Below the pieces are notes generated by a model that saw only the letters and a list, made by a program, of their open reading frames with translations, searched no databases and was not told the DNA's origin. DNA of 64,000 nucleotides from contig CAYMIU010000005.1 in assembly GCA_964390515.1 (NCBI GenBank), positions 13,912 through 77,911 of the forward strand, read 5' to 3'. This stretch comes from an uncultured Stakelama sp. Its GTDB lineage: Bacteria; Pseudomonadota; Alphaproteobacteria; Sphingomonadales; Sphingomonadaceae. Made by a program: the position numbers and the translations under genes. Below, piece after piece: positions 15,310-59,899 of this stretch. Numbering within the stretch: the stretch's first letter is position 1; every line of letters begins with the position of its first letter.

Positions 15310-15963
15310 TCAGCTCAGCGTCCGCCCGAACCACAGAACCCGCCCGACGATGTCGATGCGGCTGGGTTCGATATTCTGCCAGCTTGGATAATCAGGGTTG
15401 TCGCTCTTGATCGTGATACCCCGCCCCGCCGGCTGCCGCGCGAGCCGCTTGACCATCAGACTGTCGTCGAGGCGCAGCACGTAGATGCCGTCGCGCAGCC
15501 GGCCGACACCATCCCTGCGATCGACGAGGACATCATCACCGTCCGCCAACGTCGGCGCCATGGAATCGCCCTTGACCTGGATGATCGAAAGGCCGTCAGC
15601 CGACCCCTTGGTGCGCTCGCGCAGCCAGCGCGGATCAAAGCCGATCGACGTGCGTCGCGCCTCGCCGAAGTCGGCCGCGCCATAGCCGGCCGACGCATAG
15701 ACATCGAGCACCGGAACCTGCTGCAGCGTGGGCTTCTCCCACTCCTGCGGACCGCCGAGCAGCGTCTCCTTGACGCCGAGATACGCGGCCAAGGTCCGGC
15801 GGTCCTGCTCGGCAAGCTGCTTGGGCGTGCCGCGCTTGATGAACTGCTGGATATAGGCGGGATTGCGCCCGATCAGCCGGGACAGCCCGGCATAATCCTC
15901 ACGGCGCTCCTCGATCAGGCGCTGCAGCGCCTCGCGCGGATGTTCGATCGTCGGGACCATCAT
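15310..15963 (-). CDS. CI/LexA-like repressor (HTH + S24 autopeptidase)
   Basis: LSRLIGRNPAYIQQFIKRG HTH; SAGYG Ala-Gly cleavage site; VKGDSM (Ser) and MVKRL (Lys) dyad. Confidence 0.9.
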   Translation of the reverse strand: MMVPTIEHPREALQRLIEERREDYAGLSRLIGRNPAYIQQFIKRGTPKQLAEQDRRTLAAYLGVKETLLGGPQEWEKPTLQQVPVLDVYASAGYGAADFGEARRTSIGFDPRWLRERTKGSADGLSIIQVKGDSMAPTLADGDDVLVDRRDGVGRLRDGIYVLRLDDSLMVKRLARQPAGRGITIKSDNPDYPSWQNIEPSRIDIVGRVLWFGRTLS

Positions 15964-15997
15964 AGGGGATTTCCTATCGCACCTGGTGTGCCGTATA

Positions 15998-16012
15998 GAA
16001 CATAACGGGAAC
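15998..16012. promoter_or_regulatory. Alphaproteobacterial LexA (SOS) box
   Basis: GAAC-ATAACGG-GAAC between the divergent repressor and Cro-like genes. Confidence 0.75.
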
Positions 16013-16033
16013 GACGTAAAGCGAGTCGGCGTG

Positions 16034-16216
16034 ATGGATGGAGAATTGCTGCCCAGGATCGAGCTTTTGCTCGCCCGCGTTGGCCTGAGCGCAACCCGCT
16101 TCGGGCGCATTGTCGTCCATGATCCGCGCTTCGTATTCGACTTGCGAGCGGGCCGACGGCCACGCCGCCGGGTTCACGCGCGCGTTCACGCCTACCTCGC
16201 CGAGCATGGCGTGTGA
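16034..16216 (+). CDS. Small Cro-like DNA-binding protein
   Basis: IELLLARVGLSATRFGRIVVHDPRFVFDLRAGR; divergent from the S24 repressor. Confidence 0.7.
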   Translation: MDGELLPRIELLLARVGLSATRFGRIVVHDPRFVFDLRAGRRPRRRVHARVHAYLAEHGV

Positions 16217-16241
16217 CCGCAGCCGGCATGTAGGAACCTTC

Positions 16242-16853
16242 TCACAACCGACTGGCACGCCAGAGCGCCAACACTTTGCGCACATAAGCCGGCGTCTCGG
16301 CATTTGACGGTACGCCGCCGGCGCGCGCAACCGCCCCCGGTCCAGCATTATAGGCGGCGAGCGCCAGTGTGACCGATCCGAACCGATCGAGCATCAGGCG
16401 CAAGAAGCGCGCACCGCCGTCGACATTTGAACGCGGGTCAAACGGATTAAGGACGCCGAGTGCCCGAGCGGTGGCGGGCATCAGCTGGGCCAGGCCGATC
16501 GCGCCGGCGCTGCTGATGACGCGAGGTTGGTACGCCGACTCGGTCGCGACCAGAGCGTCGAGTAATCCCTCGGGTAGTGCATGGCGTATTTCCGCCGCGC
16601 GGATGAAGGCGAGGAATGCGTCACGACCCGGCAGGCGCGCGCTCGCGGGGACTGGCGTGGCCGTTGCCGACTTGTCGTTTGGCGGGAGCACCGCCGGAGT
16701 ATCCGGCGCACGGCTCCGATGCTCCACCAGCTGGAACACGGTCGACGCAAACGACTGATGGTCCGCAGCAGCGTCTTGCGATTGTGCCGCCGCCGGAACC
16801 GCCCAGCCGAGCGCCAGCGTCGAGATGGTGAGGAAGAGTGGTCGGATCATCAT
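16242..16853 (-). CDS. Lytic transglycosylase (SLT family)
   Basis: Signal peptide; LVATES (catalytic Glu), GAIGLAQLMP, AAYNAGPG. Confidence 0.92.
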   Translation of the reverse strand: MMIRPLFLTISTLALGWAVPAAAQSQDAAADHQSFASTVFQLVEHRSRAPDTPAVLPPNDKSATATPVPASARLPGRDAFLAFIRAAEIRHALPEGLLDALVATESAYQPRVISSAGAIGLAQLMPATARALGVLNPFDPRSNVDGGARFLRLMLDRFGSVTLALAAYNAGPGAVARAGGVPSNAETPAYVRKVLALWRASRL

Positions 16854-16889
16854 CGCCTCGCATCATGCTTTTCCCTCTTCCTCGAATCG

Positions 16890-16904
16890 GAACATAGTGC
16901 GAAC
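16890..16904. promoter_or_regulatory. Alphaproteobacterial LexA (SOS) box
   Basis: GAAC-ATAGTGC-GAAC between the divergent SLT and toprim genes. Confidence 0.75.
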
Positions 16905-16980
16905 ATGAAGCTGTAGGAAAGTGCCGCGATCCAAGAGGACAGGCGGCGACAGGGGCGCGCCACCAGGATGCAAGAAGCCC

Positions 16981-17868
16981 ATGACCATGCACGATCACCG
17001 GTTCGACAGCGCCGAGACGAGCGGAAGGACCATCGTCGAGGCGCTGGGCGGTCACTGGACGCCAAGGGGCGGTCTTTGCCGCTGTCCCGCCCATACGGAC
17101 CGTAGCCCCTCGCTCAGCGTTCGTCCCGGCCGCCGACGGCTCCTGTTCCACTGTTTCGCCGGCTGCTCGACCGTTGAGGTCATGGCAGCGCTCCGACGAT
17201 TGCACCTGCCGAGCGCTGTCGCCTGGGCCGACCGAGTGCCAGCCCCTTCCGACGAGCTCGGGCGCGAGCGGGCTCGGCGCCTATGGTCCGAGGCGAGGCC
17301 CGCGGCGGGAACGATCGTCGGCCGCTATCTGGCAGGTCGCGGATTGGCGGTGAGCTCTTCGCTCCGCTTCCATCCGCGCACGCCGCAGGGTCGTGCTCCC
17401 CTCACCCGCTTTGCGCCCGCCATGATTGCAGCGGTCGAGGACGAAACCGGCGTCGTCGCGGTCCACCGCACTTTCCTGCGCTCGGACGGCGCAGGTCTGT
17501 CGCGTCGGCAACCAGTCAAGGCGGCGCTGGGACCGCTAGGCAGCGGACTCGTCCGCCTGGCGCCGCCGGGTGCCGTCCTCGGCCTTGCTGAGGGCATCGA
17601 GACCGCCTTGTCGGCGCAGCAAATGTTCGGCGTGCCCTGCTGGGCAACGCTGGGCGGCGAGCGCTTCAGGCGCGTCGCGCTTCCAGCCGGCGTTACCGAG
17701 ATCATCCTCTTCCTCGATCATGACAGCGCCGGGCGTCGCGCCGAGGCGATTGCGCGCGAGCGCTTTGGCGATCGCCGGATCGAGGTCCGGTATCCGGAGC
17801 AGCCCGGGTCCGATTGGAACGATGTGCTGCGCCGACCGGCGAAGCAGCCGGTGGCCGACGTCGCCTAG
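16981..17868 (+). CDS. Zn-finger/Toprim primase-like protein
   Basis: CRCPAHTDRSPSLS Zn-binding motif; LGLAEGIETALS and FLDHD Toprim motifs. Confidence 0.88.
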   Translation: MTMHDHRFDSAETSGRTIVEALGGHWTPRGGLCRCPAHTDRSPSLSVRPGRRRLLFHCFAGCSTVEVMAALRRLHLPSAVAWADRVPAPSDELGRERARRLWSEARPAAGTIVGRYLAGRGLAVSSSLRFHPRTPQGRAPLTRFAPAMIAAVEDETGVVAVHRTFLRSDGAGLSRRQPVKAALGPLGSGLVRLAPPGAVLGLAEGIETALSAQQMFGVPCWATLGGERFRRVALPAGVTEIILFLDHDSAGRRAEAIARERFGDRRIEVRYPEQPGSDWNDVLRRPAKQPVADVA

Positions 17869-17936
17869 AGAAGAGGCAGGCGGAGCAGTCATGCCCCGAT
17901 GACGGCGCTGGAGCCGGTCGGGCCGGAGTCTCTGCC

Positions 17937-20900
17937 ATGGCCACTGCCGCTCTTCACCTCGACGCTCCGACCAGTCCCGTGCCGCTCGTCGCACGCCGCC
18001 TTCTCGATTTCCTGCAAGCCGGTGAGAAGATCGACGCGCGCGTCCTGCGGGATTTGCTTGCCACAAGCACGCAGCGCTCTGCGGCCGATGGAGCATGGTC
18101 GATGCGTCACGCCTATGACGCGCTCGAGCTTGCCCAAGTGATGTGGCTCGGCGCGGGGCATGGTCCTGACCTGACCGATAGGGCCAGCGCGCTCGACGCC
18201 TTGATCGCATTCGGTGGCGCCCTGCCGACCCAGACGACCCGAACTGAAGACCAGCTTGCCTTCCAGCAGTTCTCGACGCCGGTCCCGATCGCCTGGCTGA
18301 TGAGCATCGCCGCAGAACTTCGCCCCTGTGACACGATCCTCGAACCCTCGGCCGGCACAGGCTTGCTGGCCTGGCCCGCCGCGCGGCTTGGCGCGTCTCT
18401 GGTCTTGAATGAACTTGATGCCGGCCGTCGGATCTGCCTCGAGGCGGCCTTTCCGCAGGCACCGGTGAGCGGCCACGACGGGGAGCTCATCGACGACCTG
18501 CTGCCCGCTGGTCTCGAGGCCGACGTCCTGCTCATGAACCCGCCGTTCGCCCGCTCCATCGGACGTCCGATTGATCGGCATGCTGCCGCGCGTCACCTCC
18601 TCGCCGCGCTGCGCCGGCTGAAGGCTGGCGGGCGCGCAGTCGCGGTCATGCCGACCTGGTTCGATAGCTCGGTGCTCGGACCGGACGTGAGCGTCCTGTT
18701 GGACGCCGTTCTGGCGCGCGGCCTCTACAGCAAGCACGGCACCGGCCTTGCCGTCCGCATGCTGGTGCTCGACAAGCTGCCCGCGTCAGCCATGCGTTGC
18801 CAGCCGCAGGATGCGCCTGACCTCATCACGCTGCTCGACCTCGTCCAGCAGCTGCCCTTCCGCGCCCAACCGGTCCCGCCCCCACCACCGCCCTCGCCTC
18901 GCGCGCGGCTGTCGCTCTTCCAGCGGCAGCCACCGCACCCCGCCGTGCCGCAGATCCGGCCTCCGTCAGGCCATATGGCCGGTGAGCAGCCGCTCGAGGT
19001 TATCGCGCTCGACGAGCCCGCGCCGGTCGGCGAGCCGGCCGGCATCTACCTGCCCTGGCGCGCGAGCCGCATGCGCCTGCCCGGGGCCGCCGAACATCCC
19101 ACGCCACTGGTCGAGTCGCTTGCCATGGGTTCGATCGCGGCGCCCAAGCCCACCCATGTGCCGATGCTGCCTGTCCGAACGGTGGCCGACGGCATCCTCT
19201 CGGCGGCGCAGCTTGAGACGCTCGTCTATGCCGGCGCCGCCTTCGAACGCGACCTGCCCGGCCGCTTCCTGCCCAGGGACAAAGGCGCCGCGCTAGAGCC
19301 CGCAGAGCAGGGGCGAGCCTACGCAAGGGGCTTCTACCTCGGGGACGGCACGGGCGCCGGCAAGGGCCGTCAGGTCGCGGGCATCATCCTGGACCAGTGG
19401 CTGCGCGGCCGCCGCCGCCACATCTGGTTCAGCAAGAACGAGGCGCTGCTCGAGGATGCACGGCGCGACTGGACGGCGGTCGGCGGCGTCGCGCTCGACG
19501 TGCAGCCGCTCTCCGCCTGGAAGCTGGGCACGGACGTGACCCTCGACGCCGGCATCCTGTTCGTGACCTATCCGACGCTCCGTTCGGGCCGGGAGGAGGC
19601 GACACGGCTCCGCCAGCTCCTCAACTGGGCGGGTGACGCGTTCGATGGCGTGATCGCCTTCGACGAGGCGCATGCCCTGGCCAATGCCGTCGGCGGCGAG
19701 GGCTCGCGCGGGCGGGTGAAAGGCTCCGAGCAGGGGATTGCCGGCCTGCGCCTCCAGAACCTGCTGCCCCGCGCCCGCGTGTTGTACGTCTCGGCGACCG
19801 GCGCGTCCGATGTCGCCAATCTAAGCTACGCGACGCGGCTCGGCCTCTGGGGACCCGGCACCGCCTTCGCGGATCGCGACGCGTTCGTCTCAGGCGTGCG
19901 GCAGGGCGGCATCGCGGCAATGGAGCTCGTCGCCCGCGATCTGAAGGCGCTCGGCCTCTACACCGCCCGCGCGCTGTCCTTTGCCGGTGTCGAATACGAT
20001 CTGCTGGAGCACCGGCTCACGCCCGAGCAGATCGCGACCTATGACGCTTATGCCGAGGCTTGGGCGATCATCCATCGGAACCTGACCGCCGCACTCGAGG
20101 CGACGCGGGTCGTCGACAGCATCACCGGCTCGACCCTCAACGCCAACGCGAAGTCCGCCGCGCTCTCCCGCTTCGAGAGCATCAAGCAGCGCTTCTTTGC
20201 GCAGCTGCTCCTCTCGGCCAAGCTGCCGAGCCTGCTGCCGGCGATCGAGCAGGATCTCGGCCGCGGCGAAGCGGTTGTGGTCCAGCTTGTCTCCACTGCC
20301 GAAGCCATGCTGGGCCGCCGTCTCGCCGATCTCAGCCCCGAGGAGCTTGAAAGTCTCGAGATCGACCTCTCGCCGCGGGAATATGTCGTCGACTATCTGC
20401 TCGGCGCCTTTCCCACCCGACAGATGCGCGTCTTCACCGATGCAGACGGCAACACGCGCTCCGAGCCGATGAGCGATGATCAAGGCCATCCAGTCCACTG
20501 CCGGGAAGCCGAGGCGGCGCGCGATACTCTTGTCGAGCAGCTCTGTGCACTACCGCCGATCGCAACCGCGCTCGACGCCATCATTGAGCGGTTCGGCGTC
20601 GACGCCGTGGCGGAGGTGACCGGCCGGACCCGCCGGCTGGTGATCGGCTCGGACGGTGCCCAGCGCATCGAGCGCCGCAGTCAGCGCGCAAACCTCGCCG
20701 AAGCGCAGGCCTTCATGGACGGGACGAAGATGCTGCTCGTCTTCAGCGACGCCGGCGGCACCGGACGCAGTTACCATGCCTGTCTGAGGGCGAAGAACCA
20801 GGCGCGCCGGATCCATTATCTGCTCGAGCCCGGTTGGCGGGCGGATGCCGCGATCCAGGGTCTCGGACGCACCCACCGCAGCGCGCAAGCGTCTGCCCCA

Positions 20901-22148
20901 CTGTTCCGGCCGGTGACGACCGACGTCAAGGGAGAGCGGCGCTTCATCTCGACCATCGCGCGCCGTCTCGACACGCTAGGTGCCCTCACACGCGGCCAGC
21001 GCCAGACCGGTGGCCAGAACCTTTTCAACCCGGCCGACAATCTCGAGAGCGCCTATGCCAAGGACGCGCTCACCGCCTGGTATCGACTGCTCTTCGCGGG
21101 CAAGCTGCAGTCGACCACGCTGGGCGACTTCCAGGAACGCTCGGGCCTCATGCTGGAAGCCGAAGGCGGAGGGTTGCGCGAGGACCTGCCGCCGATCCAG
21201 CGCTGGCTCAACCGGCTGCTGGCATTCCCCATCGCGCTCCAGAACGCGATCTTCGACGAGTATCTCGGGCTGGTCGAGGCGCGCGTCGATGCAGCGCGCG
21301 AGGCCGGCACGCTTGACCTTGGCGTCGAGACCCTGCCGGTCGAACATGTTCGCATCGTCCATGATACGCTGCTGCGGACCGATCCGGCGAGCGGGGCCGA
21401 GACTCACCTCCTTGAACTCGCACTGACCCGGCGCCCGCGTCCACTCACCCTCGCGGCCGCGCTGCGCTTGAGCGACAGCGGCAGGAGCAGCCTGCTCGTC
21501 AACACCCGCTCGGGCCGGGCGGCCGTGCGACGCGACGGACGCAGTCTCCTCACCGAAGATGGCCAACTGCAGCGGCGGCACGAGCTCATCCGCCCGCTGA
21601 AGCGCGACCATATCGCGACCGATCGCCTCGCCGAGACCAGCTGGATGGAAGCGAGCCGCGGTGCCTTCGAGCGCGCTTGGGCTGACGAGGTGGACGAGGC
21701 CCTCGCCTCGACATCGACCGAGACCCTGTTCCTCGCGACAGGGCTGCTGCTGCCGATCTGGAACGTCCTGCCGGACGATCATGTCCAGGTGCTTCGCATC
21801 GTCGATCAGGAAGGCCAGTCTTTGCTTGGACGCGAGGTCCCGACGCTCGCGCTTCCGGAGCTTGGGCGCCGGCTGGGTCTCGATCTCGACCGAGCGCTCG
21901 ATCCGGCGCTGATTGCCAGCGCGGTGCTCGAGACCGGCCGACCCTGCCCGCTTCATGGGGCTACCGGACTGACGCTCAAGCGCGCGCTGGTCGGCGGTGA
22001 GCGGCGACTGGAACTCGCAGGCGCCGAGGCGGGACGTCTGCCCGAGTACAAGGCGCTCGGCTGCTTCACCGAGATCATCCGCTACCAGACCCGCCTCTTC
22101 GTTCCGCTCCATCGTGCCGACGAGATCCTCGTCCGACTGGCCGCTTGA
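17937..22148 (+). CDS. Methyltransferase - strawberry-notch/SF2 helicase fusion
   Basis: ILEPSAGTG and MNPPF N6-MTase motifs; GDGTGAGKG, FDEAH, QGLGRTHR helicase motifs. Confidence 0.9.
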   Translation: MATAALHLDAPTSPVPLVARRLLDFLQAGEKIDARVLRDLLATSTQRSAADGAWSMRHAYDALELAQVMWLGAGHGPDLTDRASALDALIAFGGALPTQTTRTEDQLAFQQFSTPVPIAWLMSIAAELRPCDTILEPSAGTGLLAWPAARLGASLVLNELDAGRRICLEAAFPQAPVSGHDGELIDDLLPAGLEADVLLMNPPFARSIGRPIDRHAAARHLLAALRRLKAGGRAVAVMPTWFDSSVLGPDVSVLLDAVLARGLYSKHGTGLAVRMLVLDKLPASAMRCQPQDAPDLITLLDLVQQLPFRAQPVPPPPPPSPRARLSLFQRQPPHPAVPQIRPPSGHMAGEQPLEVIALDEPAPVGEPAGIYLPWRASRMRLPGAAEHPTPLVESLAMGSIAAPKPTHVPMLPVRTVADGILSAAQLETLVYAGAAFERDLPGRFLPRDKGAALEPAEQGRAYARGFYLGDGTGAGKGRQVAGIILDQWLRGRRRHIWFSKNEALLEDARRDWTAVGGVALDVQPLSAWKLGTDVTLDAGILFVTYPTLRSGREEATRLRQLLNWAGDAFDGVIAFDEAHALANAVGGEGSRGRVKGSEQGIAGLRLQNLLPRARVLYVSATGASDVANLSYATRLGLWGPGTAFADRDAFVSGVRQGGIAAMELVARDLKALGLYTARALSFAGVEYDLLEHRLTPEQIATYDAYAEAWAIIHRNLTAALEATRVVDSITGSTLNANAKSAALSRFESIKQRFFAQLLLSAKLPSLLPAIEQDLGRGEAVVVQLVSTAEAMLGRRLADLSPEELESLEIDLSPREYVVDYLLGAFPTRQMRVFTDADGNTRSEPMSDDQGHPVHCREAEAARDTLVEQLCALPPIATALDAIIERFGVDAVAEVTGRTRRLVIGSDGAQRIERRSQRANLAEAQAFMDGTKMLLVFSDAGGTGRSYHACLRAKNQARRIHYLLEPGWRADAAIQGLGRTHRSAQASAPLFRPVTTDVKGERRFISTIARRLDTLGALTRGQRQTGGQNLFNPADNLESAYAKDALTAWYRLLFAGKLQSTTLGDFQERSGLMLEAEGGGLREDLPPIQRWLNRLLAFPIALQNAIFDEYLGLVEARVDAAREAGTLDLGVETLPVEHVRIVHDTLLRTDPASGAETHLLELALTRRPRPLTLAAALRLSDSGRSSLLVNTRSGRAAVRRDGRSLLTEDGQLQRRHELIRPLKRDHIATDRLAETSWMEASRGAFERAWADEVDEALASTSTETLFLATGLLLPIWNVLPDDHVQVLRIVDQEGQSLLGREVPTLALPELGRRLGLDLDRALDPALIASAVLETGRPCPLHGATGLTLKRALVGGERRLELAGAEAGRLPEYKALGCFTEIIRYQTRLFVPLHRADEILVRLAA

Positions 22149-22210
22149 TTGGACGAGCCGCTCGACAGGAAAAGGCTCACGATCTATTTAGGTGTTACCA
22201 CTAGAAAGTA

Positions 22211-22450
22211 ATGCAGATGGAACGCGCAATTACCGCCAGCGACGCCAACCAGCGCTTCTCCGAACTGCTCCGCGAGGTGCAGGACGGCGAGACTTTCATC
22301 GTGACGTCGCGCGGCCGGCCTGTCGCGAAGATGGTCCCGGTCGACGATCTCGACCGGCAGGCGCCCGCGATCGACGCCTTGCTCGCGCATGTCGAGGCGC
22401 TGCCTCGCCGCTCGCTCAGCGGCTGGACGCGCGAGGACCTCTACGAGTGA
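22211..22450 (+). CDS. Phd/YefM-type antitoxin
   Basis: ITASDANQRFSELLREVQDGETFIVTSRGRPVAKMVP. Confidence 0.88.
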   Translation: MQMERAITASDANQRFSELLREVQDGETFIVTSRGRPVAKMVPVDDLDRQAPAIDALLAHVEALPRRSLSGWTREDLYE

Positions 22451-22905: not shown

Positions 22906-22986
22906 CGGCAGAAGAAGAGGAAAGGCTGGCGCCGGGCAGGTGAGCCTCAGGTGCAATCGGGCACCGGGGCTCACGGAGCCTGTCCC

Positions 22987-25005
22987 ATGATCCAGACCAT
23001 CCCGCTCAACAAGCTCGTTCCCTCGAAGCGCAACGTCCGGCGACGCAGCGACGAGGTGGCTGACCTCCAGCTTCGCGCCGATATAGAGGCGCGCGGTCTG
23101 CTGCAGAACCTGATCGTCACCGCCAACAAGAAGCCGCGGGGCACCTTCGCGGTGGAAGCCGGCGGTCGGCGGCACGCGGCGCTCAAGGCGCTGGCGGAGG
23201 CCGGCACGCTCGCCGCCGATGTCGAGATCCCCTGCCTCGTGCTCGATGACCTCGGCAGCGCTGTCTCCGAGGCAAGCCTCGCCGAGAATTTCCAGAAGCT
23301 CGCGCTTAACCCTGCCGACGAGTGCCTCGCCTTTCAGCACTTCATCGAGCAGGGCTCCGACGTCGAGGGGATCGCGCGCCGCTTCGGCGTGACGGTCCGT
23401 TTCGTCGAGGGCCGTCTTCGCCTCGCCAGTCTGGCCCCGGTCGTCTTCCAGGCGCTCGCCGACGGCGAGATCACGCTTGACGTCGCCAAGGCCTATGCCT
23501 CGACACCCGACCGCGAGCGGCAGGCGCACGTCTTCGACCAGATGAGCCGCGGCTATGGTGGTGCACACCCCGACAGCGTGCGCCGCATGATGACGCAAGC
23601 GACCGTCTCGGCCAGCGATCCGCGCGCGCGACTGGTCGGCGAGGACGCCTATCTCGCGGCCGGTGGCCGGATCGACCGTGACCTGTTCGCCGACGACAGC
23701 TCCACCCGCTGGCTCGACATCGCCATTCTCGAACGGCTCGCCAGCGAGAAGATGGAAGAGACCGCCGCGGCGCTCGCCGCCGAGACCGGTTTCGCCTGGG
23801 TGCGCCCGACCCTCGACCGCTACGTCGACTGGCAGCAGACCGAGGGTCTCACCCGCGTCGATCTGCCGGCGCCGGAGCTCTCGGACGCCGAACAGAGCCA
23901 GGTCGCCGAGCTCGAAGCCCAGGCGGCTGAGCGGGTCGGGGTGCTCGAAGATGAAGAGAGCAGCGAGGCGGACCGGGCAATTGCCGAGGCCGAACTCGAG
24001 GCGCTGGAGAAGGCGATCGAGACGATCACGGACAAGGCGCCGGTGCTGCCTGACGAGCTGCGGCCGAGCGTCGGCGCGTTCCTCGTGCTCGGCCCCGATG
24101 GCGCGCCGAGGCTCCACCAGACGCTCTACGCCGATCGGCCGGACGTGGCTGGTGTCGACGAGATCGAGGCGGCCGGTGATGCCGATGCGGATGCTCCGGC
24201 GCGCGTCGTCGGCCTCTCGCAGCGCCTGACCGACGAGCTCGCGATCCAGCGTCGTGATATCCTCGCCGTCCATGTCGCGGCAGACCCCGACTTCGCGCTC
24301 GACCTCGCCATCTTCCTGATGGTCGATCGTTCGCCCGCTCGCGGGACGGTGCGCTACGGGTCGACGCTGAGCGCCCGTGCGCCGCAGGAGCCGGTCATCG
24401 GCTTCCGCACGCCCGAGGCGGCGGCGACGCTCGCCCGCAACGAGGCCGATGAGCGCCTCGAGCGCAGCTGGATCAGGCACGAGACGGTCGAAGCGCGCTT
24501 CGACGCCTTCCGCATGCTCGAACCCGAGCAGCGCGCCGCCTGGCTGGGAAACGCGGTCGCGGGCTCTCTCGAAGCGAGTGTCGGCGGGATCGGCGCAAGT
24601 CTCTGCCGCTTCCATGATCACCTGGGAACCCTGCTCGACATCGACACCGCCGCATGGTGGCGGCCGACCGCCGCCAACTTCTTCGACAAGGTGACCAAGC
24701 CGGTGATGTTCGAGACCTTGGAGCAGATCGACGGCCCGGCCCTCGCCGCGCGCTACGCGAGCGCCAAGAAGGCCGATCTCGCCGCAACCTGCGAGCGCAT
24801 CTGCGCCGGAGACTTCATCGGCGAGGTCGGTACCAAGGCGGCGGCCCGGGCGTGGCTGCCCGCTGCGATGCGCTTCGCGGCGGACGCGAGCGAGGCCAAA
24901 GCGGCGCCCCGACCCACAGATGTGGACGGGCTGGTGGCCGGCGATGAGCAGAAGGCGGATGCGCTCGATGAACCTGTTAGTGCCGAGCCTCGCGCTGCAG
25001 CCTGA
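22987..25005 (+). CDS. parB: ParB/Spo0J-like protein with long C-terminal extension
   Basis: IPLNKLVPSKRNVRR..GLLQNLIV..AGGRRHAAL..SLAENFQK. Confidence 0.88.
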   Translation: MIQTIPLNKLVPSKRNVRRRSDEVADLQLRADIEARGLLQNLIVTANKKPRGTFAVEAGGRRHAALKALAEAGTLAADVEIPCLVLDDLGSAVSEASLAENFQKLALNPADECLAFQHFIEQGSDVEGIARRFGVTVRFVEGRLRLASLAPVVFQALADGEITLDVAKAYASTPDRERQAHVFDQMSRGYGGAHPDSVRRMMTQATVSASDPRARLVGEDAYLAAGGRIDRDLFADDSSTRWLDIAILERLASEKMEETAAALAAETGFAWVRPTLDRYVDWQQTEGLTRVDLPAPELSDAEQSQVAELEAQAAERVGVLEDEESSEADRAIAEAELEALEKAIETITDKAPVLPDELRPSVGAFLVLGPDGAPRLHQTLYADRPDVAGVDEIEAAGDADADAPARVVGLSQRLTDELAIQRRDILAVHVAADPDFALDLAIFLMVDRSPARGTVRYGSTLSARAPQEPVIGFRTPEAAATLARNEADERLERSWIRHETVEARFDAFRMLEPEQRAAWLGNAVAGSLEASVGGIGASLCRFHDHLGTLLDIDTAAWWRPTAANFFDKVTKPVMFETLEQIDGPALAARYASAKKADLAATCERICAGDFIGEVGTKAAARAWLPAAMRFAADASEAKAAPRPTDVDGLVAGDEQKADALDEPVSAEPRAAA

Positions 25006-25029
25006 CGTTTCTTTATCGAACACCCCTGC

Positions 25030-25060
25030 GGGGCGGCCTTCCGCGAGGTCGCCCCCTTTT
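25030..25060 (+). terminator. Intrinsic terminator after parB
   Basis: GGGGCGGCCT-TCCGCG-AGGTCGCCCC then CTTTT. Confidence 0.6.
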
Positions 25061-25136
25061 CTCGCGGGCACCTCCGAAGAGAAAAGGCGGCTGGCGCCGG
25101 GGCGAGCCGATCCGGCTCGTCAGAAGGAGATGCGCG

Positions 25137-26057
25137 ATGCGCCAGTATCGATCCGACAATGTTCCGGCGAACCCTGCCGAGACGATCACCCAGGCCATTA
25201 TCGAGCGGCTCGAAGCGGGTGTCCGACCGTGGCGACAACCTTGGACAGGTGGCCCCGTTTCGCGCCCCTTGCGGGTCTGTGGCACGCCCTACCGGGGCGC
25301 CAACGTCATCTGGCTCTGGATGGCGGCGCAGGCGCGCGGCTATGCCTCTCCGACCTGGATGACCTACCATCAGGCGCAGCTTCTCGGTGGGCAGGTCCGC
25401 AGGGGCGAGCGCGGCACGGTCGCCATCTTCTACAAGAGCTATACCAAGGAGGTCGAGAATCCGGGCACGGGCGAGCGCGAGGACGAGGCCCGGCGCGTGC
25501 TCAAGAGCTTCACCGTGTTCAATGTCGACCAGATCGACGGCCTGCCCGAACGGTTCGCTCCTGTCCTGACGCCGCTGCCCGAACCCGACGAACGCGACCG
25601 CTCAATCGGCGCGTGGTTCGCGTCCGTGCCGGCGCGGCTCCGACATGGCGGGGGCGAGGCCTATTACATGCCGTCGACCGACGAAATCACCATGCCCGAC
25701 GTCGCGTCGTTCCGCAGCCGCGACCAGTATCGGGCGACGCTCGCGCACGAGATGGCGCACTGGACGGGGCATGCGACCCGGCTCGATCGCGCGCTCGGCA
25801 ACCGCTTCGGGAGCGACGCCTATGCCATGGAGGAGCTCGTGGCTGAGCTTGCCTCGGCGATGGTCGGGGCCGCCTTGGGATTGCCGGTCGATCATCTCGA
25901 CGATCATGCAAGCTACCTCGCGTCCTGGCTCAAGGTTCTCAAGACCGACAGCCGCGCGATCCTGACCGCCGCCGCCAAGGCCGAGGAAGCCAGCGCCTTC
26001 TTGCTCGCCTTCCAGCCCGAAACGCAGCCGGTCGAACCGGCGCTGCTCGCCGCCTGA
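25137..26057 (+). CDS. ardC: ArdC antirestriction / ssDNA-binding protein
   Basis: ITQAIIERLEAGVRPWRQPW, YRGAN, WMTYHQA, FNVDQ, LAHEMAHWTG, YAMEELVAE, HASYLASWLKVL. Confidence 0.93.
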   Translation: MRQYRSDNVPANPAETITQAIIERLEAGVRPWRQPWTGGPVSRPLRVCGTPYRGANVIWLWMAAQARGYASPTWMTYHQAQLLGGQVRRGERGTVAIFYKSYTKEVENPGTGEREDEARRVLKSFTVFNVDQIDGLPERFAPVLTPLPEPDERDRSIGAWFASVPARLRHGGGEAYYMPSTDEITMPDVASFRSRDQYRATLAHEMAHWTGHATRLDRALGNRFGSDAYAMEELVAELASAMVGAALGLPVDHLDDHASYLASWLKVLKTDSRAILTAAAKAEEASAFLLAFQPETQPVEPALLAA

Positions 26058-26126
26058 TCCCACCCACATTGCCGCCGCGGACGCACCCACCGGGTGCCAC
26101 GGCGGCGCTCGTCCGGAGTTCACACC

Positions 26127-26771
26127 ATGACCTATGATGTCGGCTACCGCTTCTCGCAGGCCCTCGATCCGAGCGGCCTCGACACGATTGCCGCCTGCCT
26201 TCACCCCATCCGGGCAGCGGCTAAGGACTGCCGCAACGCCGGCAAGCCGTTCGAGACCGATCCCGCTGTGGTCCTGCTCGCGCAGCATCTCGGAAGCGTC
26301 GCCACAAGCGCCATGCCCGACCGGGCGGCGCTTCGCTCGCTCTGCGGTGACGCGCTTGGCGAGATCGCACGCACGCCGCTGCTCGTACTGCTGGCGACGA
26401 GGGGCGTGTCCTACGATGCCGATGCCAAGCGTACCTTCCATACCGAAGCGCGGCGGGCGCTGCGGCGTCTCGCAGGCGAACTGCAACTGCCGGCAAAGAG
26501 CTTCGACATCCGCGTGTGCGAAGGTGGCCCCGCCGTCTCCGGCGAGGTCATTCTCCATGCGGATGAGCTTTACGTCCAGGTCTCGATCGGCGGCTATGGC
26601 GGCGGCGAGATCCTGTTCCGCCGCTGCCGCGGCCGATCCGATTACTGCGGCGAACGCAACCATTGGGCCCGGATGCCCGCCCTGCTCGATCCATCCAGTT
26701 TGGCCCGTCGGATGGCGCACGAGCTGGGCCTTGCGCTGACGGTGGAAGACCAGCCGCGGCTGGTCGCATGA
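26127..26771 (+). CDS. Conserved-looking hypothetical leading-region protein
   Basis: SD GGAG, ATG 26127; GGPAVSGEVILH motif typical of plasmid hypotheticals. Confidence 0.7.
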   Translation: MTYDVGYRFSQALDPSGLDTIAACLHPIRAAAKDCRNAGKPFETDPAVVLLAQHLGSVATSAMPDRAALRSLCGDALGEIARTPLLVLLATRGVSYDADAKRTFHTEARRALRRLAGELQLPAKSFDIRVCEGGPAVSGEVILHADELYVQVSIGGYGGGEILFRRCRGRSDYCGERNHWARMPALLDPSSLARRMAHELGLALTVEDQPRLVA

Positions 26772-26942
26772 CGGTGGCTGAGCGTCGCGAAGGACCCCGG
26801 CATGCGGCGCCAAAGGCCCTCTACCCGCCGGCGGTGCGTGCGCAACCCGCCCGCCTTGTCGGGGGGTGGCGCCCGCCCCTGATGCCGACGGGCGGGAGGG
26901 CGCGTCGCCGCACTTGCGCGGCGTCGTCACTGGAGACCTCTC

Positions 26943-27911
26943 ATGTCCACCACTCTTGCCGCCCAGCTCGCTGCGCTCGAACTCGGCCACCTGTCCATCC
27001 GCGCAGACGCCGGCACTAGCAACCGCAACCCGCTCGAGCCGGATGCTATCGACCAGACGCTGGCGGCGGTCTGGTCCGACCTGTTCGGACTGTTCACCGA
27101 TACCATCCTCGAGAACCAGGCCGAGGAACTTGGCTGGGGCGTGGTCAACCTCTTCCACCGCGCTGCCGCCAAGGCCTCGACCCGGATCGATCGCGCGACC
27201 GATGAAATTCGGCTGCTGCTCGCGACCAACGACGGCTCGGAAGTCCACAGCACCGAACTGGAGGAGCAGGTCGAGCGCGCCCAGGCAGCCGAAGGCGAGA
27301 TGCTGGCGCTCGAGGCGCTGCGCGAGACGGCTGCCGCTCTCTATCTGGCCGAGACCGGATCGTCGTGGCGGCCTGCTGGCGGGTCGCGCCTCAGCCATGA
27401 TGCGCTCACCACATCGGCGGTCGTGCAGGGGCGCGAGTTCCTCAAGGCACGCGCCGAGGGAAAGCGCCGCGCGGCGATGCCGCAGGGTACCCCGATCCTT
27501 TTCGCCGGCGGTCGACTGACCTTCAGCTCGACCGACGACGCGAAGGCCTATGGCGATGCGATCTGGCAGACGCTCGACCGCGTTCGCGCCAATGTCGGCG
27601 AAATGGTCCTCGTCCACGGCGGTGATGGCAAGGGCGCCGATCGCCTGGCGGCATCCTGGGCCGAACGGCATAAGGTGCCGCAGATCAGCTTCAGCCTCGA
27701 CACGCGCCTCGGTGCCCGTGCCGGGTTCCGGCGCAACGAGCAGATGCTCGATCTGAAACCCCGCTACGTCGTTGCCTTTGCCGGCAACGGCGTTCTCGAA
27801 CGCCTCGTCATTCAGGCCAAGGAGCGCGGAATTTCGGTGGTCGATCGGCGTGGCCCGCTCGGCACGAACCCCAAGCAGCATGCCCGAGCCCATGCGGCCA
27901 GCCACTGCTGA
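26943..27911 (+). CDS. DUF2493 (YspA/SLOG-like) domain protein
   Basis: ILFAGGR..VLVHGG..GADRLAASWA..GFRRNEQML..VVAFAGNG. Confidence 0.82.
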   Translation: MSTTLAAQLAALELGHLSIRADAGTSNRNPLEPDAIDQTLAAVWSDLFGLFTDTILENQAEELGWGVVNLFHRAAAKASTRIDRATDEIRLLLATNDGSEVHSTELEEQVERAQAAEGEMLALEALRETAAALYLAETGSSWRPAGGSRLSHDALTTSAVVQGREFLKARAEGKRRAAMPQGTPILFAGGRLTFSSTDDAKAYGDAIWQTLDRVRANVGEMVLVHGGDGKGADRLAASWAERHKVPQISFSLDTRLGARAGFRRNEQMLDLKPRYVVAFAGNGVLERLVIQAKERGISVVDRRGPLGTNPKQHARAHAASHC

Positions 27912-27918
27912 TCCTATC

Positions 27919-27942
27919 GGAGCGTGGCTTCGGCCACGCTCC
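27919..27942. terminator. Perfect hairpin between convergent DUF2493 and NUDIX genes
   Basis: GGAGCGTGGC-TTCG-GCCACGCTCC. Confidence 0.7.
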
Positions 27943-27945
27943 TCA

Positions 27946-28443
27946 CTATCTACCGTGAGCGGCTCGTTGGCGTGCCTTACCCGCTGCGATCCATTGCTCG
28001 AAAGCGCGCAAAACCTGGCGCAACTGAGCGTCCCTGACGACCCGTCGGGCACTTGCCAGCGTGAACCAGGATCGCTCCCGCTGGTGTCGTTCCGGCCAGT
28101 CCACCAGCTCCGCCTCGACCTCGAGTGCAAACGCTTCAATCCTCACGTCAGCGACGAACCCGAGGACCGAGCGGCCCGGCTGACGATATCGTCCGATCGC
28201 GTCAGGCACGATGCGGCCGGTCACGCCGGCCTCTTCGAGAGCTTCCCGTCCCGCGGATTGCGCCGCATCCAGACCGCGCCCGATCTTGCCCTTGGGCAGG
28301 ATCCAGCGCCGGCGTGTTCGCGACGTGACGAGCAGGACCGAGACGCTTCCGGTCGGCTCGATGCGGTAGGGGATTGCGGCAGACTGGAGCGTCACGGGTC
28401 TCGGAAAAGCAGCGGCATTGATGCCGCATACAGCACGATGCAA
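27946..28443 (-). CDS. NUDIX hydrolase
   Basis: LLVTSR..WILPKG..AGREALEEAG Nudix box (first Glu replaced), WPE..R.W. Confidence 0.85.
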   Translation of the reverse strand: MHRAVCGINAAAFPRPVTLQSAAIPYRIEPTGSVSVLLVTSRTRRRWILPKGKIGRGLDAAQSAGREALEEAGVTGRIVPDAIGRYRQPGRSVLGFVADVRIEAFALEVEAELVDWPERHQRERSWFTLASARRVVRDAQLRQVLRAFEQWIAAGKARQRAAHGR

Positions 28444-28511
28444 CCGGCTGCTCCACCGCTTTGATGTCGCCCGCTTTCCTACACGCCGGTCAGCCCCTTA
28501 ATGCCCGCGGC

Positions 28512-28964
28512 ATGTCACTCCTCCTTCTCGCCGCCGCCTCGATGATCGTCCCAGCCGGTGCGCGCTTCACCTGCACGCCGGTTGCGGTCTGGGACGGTGA
28601 TGGTCCGATATGGTGCGCGGAGGGTCCGCGGATCCGACTGGCCGGGATCGCCGCACGCGAGATCGACGGCAGCTGTCGGAAGGGTCACCCCTGCCCCGGT
28701 GAGTCCGGCCGAGCTGCGCGCGATCACCTCGTCCAGCTGCTTGGCGGGGCACGCGGCACGCGTCGAACGGGCCATGTCGTCGTGCGCGGTCCGGTGCTCA
28801 CCTGCCGATCGAACGGCGCTGCCCGCGGCACCCGAACCGGCGCTTTCTGCCGCTCCGCAACGACAGGCGACCTCTCCTGCGCGATGGTCCGGAGCGGCTA
28901 TGCACTCGCCTGGGCGCGCTATGACGGCAAGCTGGTCTGCCGATCGGACCAAGGCCATTCCTGA
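28512..28964 (+). CDS. Thermonuclease (SNase-like), probably exported
   Basis: VWDGDG, IRLAGIAARE, DLSCAMVRSGYA; hydrophobic N-terminus. Confidence 0.8.
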   Translation: MSLLLLAAASMIVPAGARFTCTPVAVWDGDGPIWCAEGPRIRLAGIAAREIDGSCRKGHPCPGESGRAARDHLVQLLGGARGTRRTGHVVVRGPVLTCRSNGAARGTRTGAFCRSATTGDLSCAMVRSGYALAWARYDGKLVCRSDQGHS

Positions 28965-29230
28965 TGTCGGAGCGGTGAGGGCTCAATCTCCACCAGCACC
29001 TGGAACCGTCCCCATCGCCGCCTGATCCCTATGGCGGTCGCGAACCGCTGCAACCCGCCGTTCAAGGCCCGTGTTGCGCCCGCGCTGACGCTTGGCGCTG
29101 CCCGCGCCAGCCTTGCCCGTCAGGTTCCCCTCCGGCCTGCCGGCCTCGGTGCATCGCCCCGCTGAAGCCCGCCATGGCCGGGTTCTGCGTCGACGGGAAC
29201 GGTCCCGGCGACCTTTCAGGAGCGAGCCTC

Positions 29231-29641
29231 ATGACCAACACCGTTCTTCTTGTCGGGAATCTCGGCACCGATCCCGAGACCCGCACCACCCGCGGCGAAA
29301 CCCGGGTCGTCAGCCTCAGCCTCGGCACCAGCCGGCCCAAGCGCGACAGCGAGGGCAAGACCTTCAAGGATGCGAGCGGCTTCACCGCCAAGGAAACCGA
29401 GTGGCACCGCATCACGTGCTTTAACGGCCTCGGCAAGACCGTCGCGCAGTACGCCACCAAGGGGATGATGCTCGCGGTGCGCGGTCGCATCCACTACAGC
29501 AAGTGGACCGATCGGGAGGGGGTCGAGCGGTACGGCTGCGAGATCATCGCCGAGGACGTGCAGTTCCTCAGCCGCGGCAAGCCGGCGAGCGCGGGTGATC
29601 CCGGAAGCCAGAACGACATCGACGACGACCTTCCCTTCTGA
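29231..29641 (+). CDS. ssb: Single-stranded DNA-binding protein
   Basis: NTVLLVGNLGTDPE, TEWHRI, VRGRI, C-terminal DDDLPF. Confidence 0.95.
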   Translation: MTNTVLLVGNLGTDPETRTTRGETRVVSLSLGTSRPKRDSEGKTFKDASGFTAKETEWHRITCFNGLGKTVAQYATKGMMLAVRGRIHYSKWTDREGVERYGCEIIAEDVQFLSRGKPASAGDPGSQNDIDDDLPF

Positions 29642-29652
29642 GCGGTCGGATC

Positions 29653-29681
29653 AGCCCCGGCGGCCATGCCGCCGGGGCTTT
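29653..29681 (+). terminator. Hairpin terminator after ssb
   Basis: AGCCCCGGCGGC-CAT-GCCGCCGGGGCT-TT. Confidence 0.65.
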
Positions 29682-29683
29682 CC

Positions 29684-29905
29684 TCATGCTTGCGGGCGGG
29701 TTCCAAAATGCCGCGCAACGATGGCGTCGAGCCGCCGCGTCAGCAGCCCGGCGAGCGCGAGCGCATCGCGCTCCGCATCGAACGGATCGCGCTCAAAGGC
29801 CGTGACGATCGCGTCGCGCAGCCAGTAGCTCGTCGACGGATCGGCAAGGATCGCCAGCAACTCGGCAACGTCCCCTGCCCCTCGACTTGGGTCAGGCCGG
29901 GTCAT
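29684..29905 (-). CDS. Small hypothetical protein (73 aa)
   Basis: MTRPDP..LADPSTSYWLRDAI..RDPFDAERDA; overlaps the upstream ORF. Confidence 0.6.
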   Translation of the reverse strand: MTRPDPSRGAGDVAELLAILADPSTSYWLRDAIVTAFERDPFDAERDALALAGLLTRRLDAIVARHFGTRPQA

Positions 29906-30161
29906 CGCCGCCTCCCGTTCCGGCCGACTTCGGCGCGCCTGCGGGGCCCGGACGCCGCTGCGGAACCGGGTTGTCGAGAGCGTGCCGGATCGCCTGACGG
30001 AGGCCTTCGGAACCCAAGGCGCCGCCGCCAGCGTCGAGCACGATGATGCCCAGCTCCAGGGCCGCCGCTTGGCGCAGGGCATCGCGCAAGCTCGCCAGCC
30101 GTCGTTCTTCTTCGTCATGTCGGGTGAGCGCATCGAGCGCGCTCGGCTTCTTCTTGGCCAC
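29892..30161 (-). CDS. Small hypothetical protein (89 aa)
   Basis: GTG start, AKKKPSALDALTRHDEEERRL..AALELGIIVL; upstream CTGTAGGAAAGTGC motif. Confidence 0.55.
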   Translation of the reverse strand: MAKKKPSALDALTRHDEEERRLASLRDALRQAAALELGIIVLDAGGGALGSEGLRQAIRHALDNPVPQRRPGPAGAPKSAGTGGGDDPA

Positions 30162-30390
30162 GACCAGTCTCCTGTCGGTCGAAGCCCCTTCCGACCTCTT
30201 CTTCGCCCAGGCGCGTGCCTGTAGGAAAGTGCTTTCTCGGTCGATCGGCCCAAGTCTTCTCCACGAGCGTGCCGCATCCAATCGGTCGTCGCGGGCATCG
30301 AGCCCGCGCCGACCGAGCTCTTCTACTCGCTCGACATGGGGAAGCATGACAGCGGCGAAGACCGGGCCTCAAGGACGACGGGGCCCCACC

Positions 30391-30450
30391 ATTTTTCCGG
30401 CCGATCGAGGTCAGCCCGTTCCAACGAGCGTCGCGCATGGCCGGAAAAAT
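30391..30450. repeat. 12-bp perfect inverted repeat within an extended stem-loop
   Basis: ATTTTTCCGGCC-N36-GGCCGGAAAAAT, extendable outward; further hairpin at 30477-30493. Confidence 0.75.
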
Positions 30451-30561
30451 CGTGACCCCCATCGCCGCTAACGCGGCCGCTCCTTCGGAGCGGTCCCTGA
30501 CCCCCGATCTTCCCCGCTGTCCCTCAGACGCCGTCTTTGACGAAGAATGAGAGGACGGACG

Positions 30562-30801
30562 ATGACCTTCTACAGCCCGATTACCACCACCGCCGCCGCT
30601 GCCACGGACCACGACGCCTATATGGCCGCCTACGCTAAGGCCGCGGCAAGGGCGCCGTACAGCTACTTCGACCAGCACATCATCCGCACCGACGATGGCT
30701 GCTACTGGGTTGCCGATGAAGGAGACTATGAGACGCTGTTGGCGGACCTGATTGACCGGATCGTCCACACCGTGCCCGCCGGCCGCAGCGACGAATACTA
30801 A
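30562..30801 (+). CDS. Small acidic hypothetical protein (79 aa), first leading-region gene
   Basis: SD GAGGA; followed by terminator GCGAGAGGG-N7-CCCTCTCGC-TTT (30806-30833). Confidence 0.65.
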   Translation: MTFYSPITTTAAAATDHDAYMAAYAKAAARAPYSYFDQHIIRTDDGCYWVADEGDYETLLADLIDRIVHTVPAGRSDEY

Positions 30802-30989
30802 GCCGGCGAGAGGGGCAGTCACCCTCTCGCTTTGCTCGTCCAGAGCACCTCCTTCCTCGCGCTAAACTCTCATCCTCCCGGCCATAGCCATCCCTTTGCG
30901 ATGGTGCGTTCACGCCGTCGGCGATCCCACCGGACACCGCATCGAAGCCCGATCGTCAGTCTATCATCCCCTACCGCAGCACCTAGACG

Positions 30990-31050
30990 ATATGGCGCAA
31001 AGGGAGCACACCCTATGCGGCAAGCTCGCAGGATAAGAGTTTGAGGAACC
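30990..31050 (-). other. Candidate oriT / nic site (MOBF)
   Basis: Minus strand TTGCCGCATAGGGTGT^GCTCCC resembles the F nic (TTTGCGTGGGGTGT^GGTGC). It lies in the gap just before the RHH-traD-relaxase operon and its polarity fits the leading region. Confidence 0.45.
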
Positions 31051-31241
31051 CCGCCAAAAGCCGTCCCACGCCCACATGCATTTCGTGGTTCTTTGTGGGG
31101 CCGTGGCTAAGCCATTGTTTTCGGCTGAAGGATAGTTGAAGCCGAACCGCGAAAAGCGTTTTCCTACAGCCCCCGGCCGCTGCTAGACGAACCCTGCCTT
31201 GCGACGCGCGACCATGCTCCTCCGGCATACCGGAGTCGTGC

Positions 31242-33825: not shown

Positions 33826-33831
33826 CCCGCC

Positions 33832-54231: not shown

Positions 54232-54250
54232 GCATGAGTCGATTCTGCCG

Positions 54251-59896: not shown

Positions 59897-59899
59897 GCC

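Follow-up and report, generated by a model that had tools for sequence, protein, structure and literature searches.

The stretch of DNA analysed here, hereafter the window, comprises 64,000 nucleotides of an uncultured Stakelama sp. (positions 13912-77911 of contig C5 of the source genome G000, 4.5 Mb; G+C content of the window 66%) and carries, judged by its genes, the regulatory core of a large F-type/MOBF (MPF-F) conjugative element. In this core, a gene for a repressor of the S24 type is divergent from a gene for a small Cro-like protein, and a short word recurs at the predicted -35 position of promoters dispersed over the element. The whole analysis was computational.

Gene content of the element

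Gene order was obtained from Pfam scans of the window genes, with some assignments made by reading the translation. The relaxosome operon (31242-36750, plus strand) starts with a TrwA-like ribbon-helix-helix (RHH) gene (31242-31532, plus strand; from the translation), followed by a TrwB/TraD type IV coupling protein gene (31522-33825, plus strand; Pfam TrwB_AAD_bind, E = 3e-156) and the gene of the MOBF relaxase-helicase TrwC (33832-36750, plus strand; Pfam TrwC, E = 7e-85). On the same contig, traL and traE (Pfam) and a gene for a TraA-like pilin (by translation) are located at C5:93.8-94.2 kb, the XRE/traA region of the F-type pilus lying about 16-16.6 kb past the window end. The MOBF/MPF-F markers, i.e. 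TrwC relaxase, TrwB-type coupling protein and F-type pilus genes, are all present, and relatives sit integrated in the chromosome (G112, a single-contig genome); together, these findings argue for a large MOBF/MPF-F conjugative element.

For comparison, 20-kb stretches of close relatives (71-91% identity) were used; among the plasmids of PLSDB, no relative exceeded 57% repressor identity. The source genome itself holds a second related conjugative element, distributed over contigs C30 (1-10200), C52 (5.7-14 kb) and C40 (2.3-3.5 kb), whose repressor and TrwC are 85% and 66% identical to those of the window, respectively.

Repressor, Cro-like gene and candidate operator

The repressor gene (15310-15963, minus strand) encodes a CI/LexA-type protein of 217 amino acids; its start, formerly set at 16110, was corrected to 15963. 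The C-terminal domain matches Pfam Peptidase_S24 (PF00717, E = 9e-18, residues 89-209). Ser134 (GDSM) is invariant in 19 aligned sequences including host LexA, and Lys172 and the cleavage site Ala92-Gly93 (ASAG) are each retained in at least 90% of homologs. The AlphaFold2 (AF2) model, with a predicted local distance difference test (pLDDT) score of 81.6, consists of a five-helix N-terminal domain (residues 9-69, pLDDT above 90) and a beta-rich C-terminal domain, and the ASAG site is found at the start of a low-confidence linker (residues 93-102). Top Foldseek matches were 186 CI, a lambda-186 hybrid repressor, LexA and lambda CI (E = 5e-10 to 1e-7), and the C-terminal domain matched lambda CI, LexA and UmuD. 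No Pfam helix-turn-helix (HTH) match was obtained for the N-terminal domain, in which the HTH was seen by AF2 fold only. As read from alignment and model, the protein is CI/LexA-like with cleavage site and Ser-Lys dyad intact, and RecA-dependent cleavage is predicted for it.

The Cro-like gene (16034-16216, plus strand) encodes a stand-alone Cro/CI-type HTH of 60 amino acids, assigned by its AF2 fold (four helices, pLDDT 92.8; no Pfam family). Its best fold matches were the 434 repressor DNA-binding domain, P22 c2, HigA and 434 Cro (TM-score 0.62-0.70, with E-values that are non-significant for a chain this short), and the family shares the conserved pattern M.LL.RIE..SATRFGR..DPRFV.DLR.GRRP. 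The folds of both proteins justify the term CI/Cro-like pair at fold level. The initial annotation had described an S24 repressor with intact Ala-Gly site and Ser-Lys dyad divergent from a Cro-like gene, which is borne out by the alignment and the folds. Because the Cro-like gene is the sole gene of its own transcription unit, it is the natural output of the switch.

Between the two genes, the palindrome ATAGG-N6-CCTAT was confirmed at 15962-15977. This candidate operator, ATAGGGGATTTCCTAT (TAGG-N6-CCTA; recognised from the sequence), covers the Shine-Dalgarno sequence and ATG of the repressor gene and gives the -35 (TTCCTA, 15971-15976) of the Cro-like promoter, the -10 of which is TATAGA (15994-15999). 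TAGG-N6-CCT[AT] was present at 23/23 distinct homologous loci that have the Cro-like gene, and the whole layout of small gene, GTTC-N7-GTTC, TAGG-N6-CCTA and repressor was kept in 22-23 of 23 modules, down to 55% repressor identity.

LexA boxes

The LexA box already noted in this gap is a true box of the alphaproteobacterial type (GAACATAACGGGAAC, 15998-16012, plus strand); it immediately follows the predicted -10 of the Cro-like promoter and is conserved in 22 of 23 homologous modules. A second box, previously overlooked, lies at 16890-16904 (GAACATAGTGCGAAC, plus strand), 8 nt from the repeat copy at 16911. Its minus strand reads TATGTT, the predicted -10 of the gene of an SLT lytic transglycosylase, and it is near-invariant in seven elements (GTTCGCAYTATGTTC; two with one substitution each). 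The third, GAACATAAAGGGAAC (54217-54231, plus strand), heads a cargo cassette (54194-61157) of an imuA-like gene, imuB (IMS/DUF6504), dnaE2 (DnaE2-type Pol III alpha) and an SRAP gene, and was used as internal positive control for the box type. Boxes of the style GAACATA..G.GAAC were found at 15998, at 16890 and at the pilin promoter (C5:94289; minus strand TATGAT). GTTC-N7-GTTC also stands directly before lexA and recA of the source genome, and before two imuA-imuB cassettes and an SRAP gene. This is the published Caulobacter SOS box GTTCN7GTTC (PMC9578287) and the sequence given for the alphaproteobacterial LexA regulon by da Rocha et al. 2008, as cited in PMC9578287. An E. coli-type LexA box (CTGT...ACAG) was considered and discarded, as no partner half was found. 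By this likeness, the window boxes at 15998 and 16890 are predicted LexA sites of the true alphaproteobacterial type.

Of the 17 strong GAACAT-N5-GAAC boxes in the source genome, ten lie on conjugative-element contigs, including two on contig C45 that head SOS cargo genes (imuA-like, SRAP). Conjugative elements could in this way titrate LexA or tie the timing of the host SOS response to element copy number. The sole lexA gene of the genome lies at G000:C5:122722-123381, 45 kb right of the window, with two overlapping GTTC-N7-GTTC boxes before its start.

The repeated word

The repeat reported by the initial annotation is real and stronger than had been stated, and every feature named there was found at its place. 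The 14-mer CTGTAGGAAAGTGC occurs exactly at 16911 and 30219, and the reverse variant TTTCCTACAG at 31160-31169. A further conserved copy at 28475-28483 (minus-strand TGTAGGAAA) had been missed in this list. The 8-mer TGTAGGAA has six copies in the window against 0.30 expected, a number reached in 0/100 shuffles. In an unbiased count over 15001-37000, TGTAGGAAA/TTTCCTACA was the top enriched 9-mer (4 copies, 0.031 expected, 128-fold) and, among the enriched 9-mers, TGTAGGAAA was the only one to recur in four related elements (4, 3, 4 and 4 copies). The enrichment of GAACATGTTC in the k-mer table was dismissed as an artefact of palindrome counting.

Over 30 instances, the conserved word extends to 12 bp and reads YGYTTTCCTACA towards the genes. 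Nine copies are present in the source genome, all in such elements or beside LexA-type boxes, with a strong box of this type no more than about 1 kb away in each case, and in the complete genome G112 all nine lie within two conjugative elements, with none elsewhere in the 4.5-Mb chromosome. Repressor copies without conjugation genes (L032, L038) showed no dispersed word sites. In genome G104, TTTCCTACA precedes a LexA box by one base (GTTCCCNCTGTGTTC) at two paralogous loci (G104:C6:1080218 and G104:C4:593208; L059, L060), both in front of a small gene; within 8 kb of them, no homolog of the repressor, the Cro-like protein or the XRE protein was found.

Two 8-mer copies of the window were left outside the set. 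The copy at 3377 is within the coding sequence of a signal peptide. For 16229, the presence of TGTAGGAAC was verified, yet its membership in the operator set was not upheld, the copy being not conserved and facing no gene start: this TGTAGGAA(C) copy (16229-16236, plus strand) is probably due to chance, since the Cro-like and SLT genes converge on it with their ends and a 91%-identical relative lacks it.

The word shares the TCCTA core of the repressor's palindrome. At the Cro-like promoter of the window, the palindrome arm at the -35 is TTCCTAT; the strict form is present there in two relatives, L036/L037, whose operator reads TGTAGGAAATCACCTAT with an arm of exactly TGTAGGAAA. Read from these alignments, the dispersed word is a genuine and conserved element of regulation and corresponds to one arm of the operator of this family.

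Dispersed sites and promoter geometry

Four syntenic sites of the window keep TTTCCTACA invariant while their flanks diverged: site A in seven elements, B in two, C in five and on C52, and D in five. Site A (CACTTTCCTACA, 16912-16923, minus strand) provides the -35 of the promoter (TTCCTA-17-TATGTT) of the SLT lytic transglycosylase gene (16242-16853, minus strand; Pfam SLT, E = 1e-23) and is found 61 nt before the ATG of a toprim gene on the opposite strand; its flanks are free in the seven elements, and in L036/L037 it forms a full palindrome, TGTAGGAAAGCGCCTAT. Site B (CGCTTTCCTACA, 28472-28483, plus strand) is the -35 of a secreted thermonuclease-like gene (28512-28964, plus strand; 150 amino acids with signal peptide, from reading the sequence), TTCCTA-17-TAATGC-7-ATG, in a gap shared with a divergent NUDIX-like gene (27946-28443, minus strand; motif seen by eye, no Pfam match). 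In the relative L031, the -35/-10/ATG spacing of this promoter is retained with changed letters. Homologs of the nuclease-like gene are encoded on C52 (83%) and C72 (58%). As a side observation, its ATG follows the predicted -10 after 7 nt (6 nt in a relative), and the mRNA is probably leaderless.

Site C (CACTTTCCTACA, 30220-30231, minus strand) serves as -35 of a two-gene operon of a DUF6437 gene (29892-30161) and a small gene (29684-29895), both on the minus strand; GAAAGnnCTTTCCTACA is invariant there in five elements and in the second element of the source genome (C52:7395). Site D (CGTTTTCCTACA, 31157-31168, plus strand) is the -35 of the relaxosome operon promoter, TTCCTA-17-TAGACG, with the -10 at 31184-31189, and lies 73 nt before the RHH gene. 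In five elements, its spacer is fixed at 17 nt with free letters and the TA of the -10 is invariant (TAAACC, TACACG, TAATCC or TATCCC in relatives). Sites C and D (30220-30233, 31155-31168) were in addition seen to be preceded by a conserved GAAAG/GAAAA, so that a short inverted repeat arises (GAAAGnnCTTTC). This repeat has another axis than the TAGG-N6-CCTA operator and could represent an UP-like A-tract or a second binding mode.

A fifth place is located outside the window, in the promoter TAGGATGTTCYYGTTTTGTTTTCCTACA of the XRE/HTH_31 gene divergent from the pilin-traL-traE operon (TTCCTA-16-TAGCGT or similar, with a spacer of 17 in one element); it was found in seven elements. The second element of the source genome retains sites A and C and this XRE site. 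The range proposed earlier, covering leading-region and relaxosome promoters, is supported by these sites and proved too narrow, since the predicted regulon reaches the XRE/traA region beyond the window. Separately, a further conserved TTCCTA (TTTCCTAG; TTCCTAC or TTCCTAT) was noticed in the middle of the traA/XRE gap at G000:C5:94360, about 180 nt upstream of the word in the XRE promoter, with counterparts at this position in six further elements (L055-L063, C40).

The position of the word suggests that the XRE protein itself (160 amino acids), encoded beside the pilin operon, might read it, with autoregulation and control of the other promoters; the conservation of TAGGATGTTCYYGTTTTGTTTTCCTACA before its gene in seven elements and the restriction of this gene to conjugative elements would agree with such a role. 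It is nevertheless improbable, as the TAGGAA/TCCTA half-sites form the S24/Cro operator core in many genomes whose inspected stretches showed no XRE gene, and no XRE homolog is encoded near the G104 sites that combine the word with a LexA box.

All 30 of 30 instances have the same orientation, with the next gene start 28-75 nt downstream, and in five of the six promoter classes a hexamer starting with TA follows TTCCTA after 16-17 nt, including the Cro-like promoter (TTCCTA-17-TATAGA). The DUF6437 promoter is the exception, with GAAGAA, or GATGAT in relatives, in place of the TA hexamer. On C52, the sister relaxase promoter is TTGACG-18-TATGTT and has its -10 covered by a LexA box; it aligns with TTCCTA-17-TAGACG of the window, both being 4 nt away from the conserved CTGCCTTGCG, from which it follows that the word occupies the -35 slot. 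The direction assumed in the initial annotation, TGTAGGAAA towards toprim, had to be reversed: the functional reading is TTTCCTACA towards the SLT, nuclease and DUF6437 genes and the relaxase operon. TGTAGGAAA pointing at toprim and NUDIX was rejected on the grounds that sites C and D would then face no gene, and the reverse reading always does. Likewise discarded were a Shine-Dalgarno function of AGGA, which fits the repressor's own palindrome only, the dispersed sites being wrongly spaced to start codons, and an RNA element, the sites giving neither an Rfam match nor a tRNA. A scan with the E. coli sigma-70 consensus returned nothing at these places, that consensus being uninformative for an alphaproteobacterium. 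A second TAGG half-site upstream of the dispersed sites was present only at site A of L036/L037.

Strict promoter geometry and orientation would also be expected if the word were a dedicated -35 element recognised by a host sigma factor or another host regulator, with no element protein involved, and the two G104 sites, which combine the word with a LexA box without element regulators nearby, could be read likewise. The census makes this explanation as doubtful as the one based on XRE: 9/9 copies of G112 are confined to two elements, with none in the rest of the chromosome, and the mere nine copies of the source genome are all tied to elements or SOS boxes. The element contigs (C5, C30, C40 and C52) hold no sigma gene, which further weakens it and led to the rejection of an element-encoded sigma factor. 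The word is also unlike the known alphaproteobacterial sigma-70, RpoH, RpoN and EcfG promoters.

Proposed regulation by DNA damage

The preferred explanation, to which a probability of about 0.5 is assigned, is that the S24 repressor on the 12-mers holds the promoters off, and that RecA filaments remove both repressor and LexA upon damage. The repressor would sit on the 12-mers over the -35 and block RNA polymerase, and the SLT, nuclease, DUF6437, relaxosome, XRE and Cro-like genes would be kept off. Host LexA on the GTTC-N7-GTTC boxes would add repression at the repressor/cro, SLT/toprim and traA promoters. Upon DNA damage, RecA filaments would trigger cleavage of LexA and of the S24 repressor, and leading-region, relaxosome and pilus genes would then come on together. 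On the pattern of sites, gene transfer is probably switched on by DNA damage.

Several observations argue for this scheme. TAGGAA half-sites are present in homologous modules for which the inspected stretches revealed no XRE gene, which makes the S24 or the Cro-like protein the probable binder; the S24 repressor appears most likely, and the Cro-like protein next. A LexA box takes the place of the 12-mer at two homologous promoters, namely the relaxase promoter on C52 and that of the nuclease homolog on C72 (TTGTCA + LexA box), and this exchange is the strongest argument for the word as a damage-sensitive repressor site; repression is accordingly the sign of regulation that we infer. Of the earlier proposal that the TAGGA motif is the operator, the conserved element sharing the core of the repressor's palindrome stands, and binding by the S24 protein becomes a conjecture with a serious competitor in the Cro-like protein. 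The proposed wiring to DNA damage gains from the true LexA boxes and from their replacing the word in sister promoters, with the amendment that part of the signal would run directly via host LexA.

Other features weigh against repression by the S24 protein. The dispersed sites are asymmetric 12-mers, and binding by CI-like dimers usually takes a pair of half-sites; TAGG is found as upstream half in L036/L037 only, and elsewhere this half depends on the promoter class (AAAG, GCGG, GTTT). The strict single orientation, the fixed -35 register and the weak core hexamers (TTCCTA/TAGACG, compared with TTGACG/TATGTT at the LexA-controlled sister promoter) give these promoters an activator-dependent look, and SetCD/AcaCD boxes are known from activator-dependent promoters of such appearance. 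The repressor's own arm varies among elements (ATAGGAAA, CTAGGACG, CTAGGATG) and the dispersed word never does, which could mean a different reader. In addition, double control of site A by two RecA-sensitive repressors looks redundant.

These features are better accommodated if the 60-residue Cro-type protein mainly reads the 12-mer, either as a master activator over the -35 or as a second repressor, with the S24 protein acting on full palindromes only. Fixed register, single orientation and weak hexamers fit activator dependence; the dispersed word is stricter than, and unlike, the repressor's own operator arm; and the Cro-like protein has a Cro/434-type HTH fold, always accompanies the TAGG palindrome, and is encoded alone in a transcription unit under an S24/LexA-controlled promoter, as befits the output of the switch. 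Still, we regard this as a tentative alternative, since an HTH of 60 amino acids has no obvious surface for contact with RNA polymerase, Cro proteins are usually repressors, and the replacement of the word by boxes of LexA, itself a repressor, at two sister promoters is easier to explain if the word is a repressor site. As operators are commonly shared by CI and Cro, both explanations may be partly true. In a combined version, which seems slightly less likely again, the CI-like and Cro-like proteins would form a repressor/activator pair competing for the TCCTA core, in which the Cro-type HTH activates the regulon via the 12-mer that replaces the -35, with LexA as an AND gate at several promoters. 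If this were true, the role played by SetCD/AcaCD in other systems would here fall to a minimal Cro-type protein.

The underlying observation is solid, and the wiring diagram as predicted from it is well supported; the reader of the word and the sign of regulation are its conjectural parts.

Distribution and neighbouring genes

Homologs of the S24 repressor were found in 282/301 genomes of the family (about 94%), a count by repressor match alone that may include LexA or other S24 proteins. Among the 30 best loci (including L005-L030), the small HTH gene, LexA box and palindrome usually occur with the repressor, mostly outside conjugative elements; on the plasmid pC33, the module is located beside SRAP and thermonuclease genes. 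The S24/Cro/LexA-box module may represent a widespread second SOS-type regulator of Sphingomonadaceae. Distant modules (L045-L049, pC33) are without conjugation genes and without dispersed sites, so that co-variation there did not discriminate between the possible binders.

A third MOBF relaxase (45% identical) is encoded on contig C45 of the source genome, which also carries a second imuA/imuB cassette and an SRAP gene (23-26 kb; L050, 8442-10324) with a GTTC-N7-GTTC box at each; neither an S24 repressor homolog nor the 12-mer was found on C45.

Among the remaining genes of the window, the primase-like toprim/DUF7146 gene divergent from SLT (16981-17868, plus strand; Pfam DUF7146 and Toprim_3; alternative GTG start at 16921) is followed by a Strawberry-notch helicase gene (up to 22148, plus strand; Pfam) and by genes for a Phd antitoxin, a ParB-like protein, ArdC and a YAcAr/SLOG protein (plus strand; Pfam). 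A single-stranded-DNA-binding protein (SSB) gene (plus strand) lies after the secreted nuclease-like gene, and a small gene is encoded at 30563-30801 (plus strand). Downstream of the relaxase, the window holds cargo that includes defence systems, error-prone polymerases and sensor kinases. The imuB of the cargo cassette appears as two overlapping frames (54870-55679, 55818-56627), a picture suggestive of a frameshift or a wrongly set start.

Implications

DNA-damage-induced transfer is established for SXT/R391 and ICEBs1; to our knowledge, it is not established for conjugative elements of alphaproteobacteria. The wiring proposed here combines a CI/Cro pair, an invariant word of 12 bp in the -35 position of five dispersed promoters, and LexA boxes directly on the pilin, SLT/toprim and, in a sister copy, relaxase promoters. 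According to it, large elements rich in cargo should be mobilised by genotoxic stress in sphingomonads, bacteria of soil and water and degraders of pollutants. A second prediction is that more than half of the strongest LexA sites of a cell reside on the several such elements it carries, with a possible feedback on the SOS response of the host. If the prevalence of about 94% in the family, based on repressor match alone, holds, the binding specificity seen here may apply far beyond this element. A literature search for the way this element family is regulated returned no paper; a preprint on a Sphingopyxis integrative and conjugative element (10.64898/2025.12.11.693706) does not treat LexA, operators or this motif.

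Comparison with known systems

In SXT/R391, the gene of SetR, a lambda-CI-type S24 repressor, is divergent from that of CroS, and RecA-stimulated cleavage of SetR couples transfer to DNA damage (PMC9578287); the rumAB promoter is co-controlled by LexA, SetR and CroS (PMC9578287). The window resembles this system in its S24 repressor divergent from a cro-like gene and in predicted host LexA boxes at some promoters. In contrast to SXT/R391, dispersed transfer and leading-region promoters have a repressor-type half-site at their -35, and LexA boxes stand directly on the pilin, SLT/toprim and, in the sister copy, relaxase promoters. The relaxase belongs to MOBF (TrwC) instead of MOBH, and the LexA box of the alphaproteobacterial host is a direct repeat. 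Among the genes scanned (1-61157), no match to the FlhC/FlhD family, i.e. no SetCD-type master activator, was seen. With this and its MOBF relaxase, the element works like SXT/R391 without being a member.

The transcriptional network of the IncW plasmid R388, said to have been described by Fernandez-Lopez et al. in 2014, reportedly involves the repressors ArdK, StbA, KorA and TrwA. R388 carries its TrwA-TrwB-TrwC operon next to oriT, and none of its plasmid-encoded repressors is known to be a self-cleaving S24 protein; we know of no LexA boxes on its transfer promoters. Common to both are the MOBF operon of TrwC, TrwB and RHH TrwA and short operators repeated at leading-region and transfer promoters; unlike R388, the element has an F-type type IV secretion system (traA-traL-traE) and an S24 repressor with a cleavage site.

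With the CI-Cro switches of lambda, 434 and 186, the element shares the CI fold, cleavage site and Ser-Lys dyad, the divergent Cro-type partner and a palindrome overlapping both promoters. It differs from these phages by the operator arm at no fewer than five (at least) further promoters over about 80 kb, by a host LexA box within the switch and by a 'Cro' transcript without downstream genes. Finally, the boxes agree with those of the alphaproteobacterial LexA regulon, i.e. the same direct repeat over the -10 or the transcription start; unlike in the usual regulon, the predicted targets are conjugation genes (pilin, SLT/toprim and the sister relaxase operon) and the repressor switch of a mobile element.

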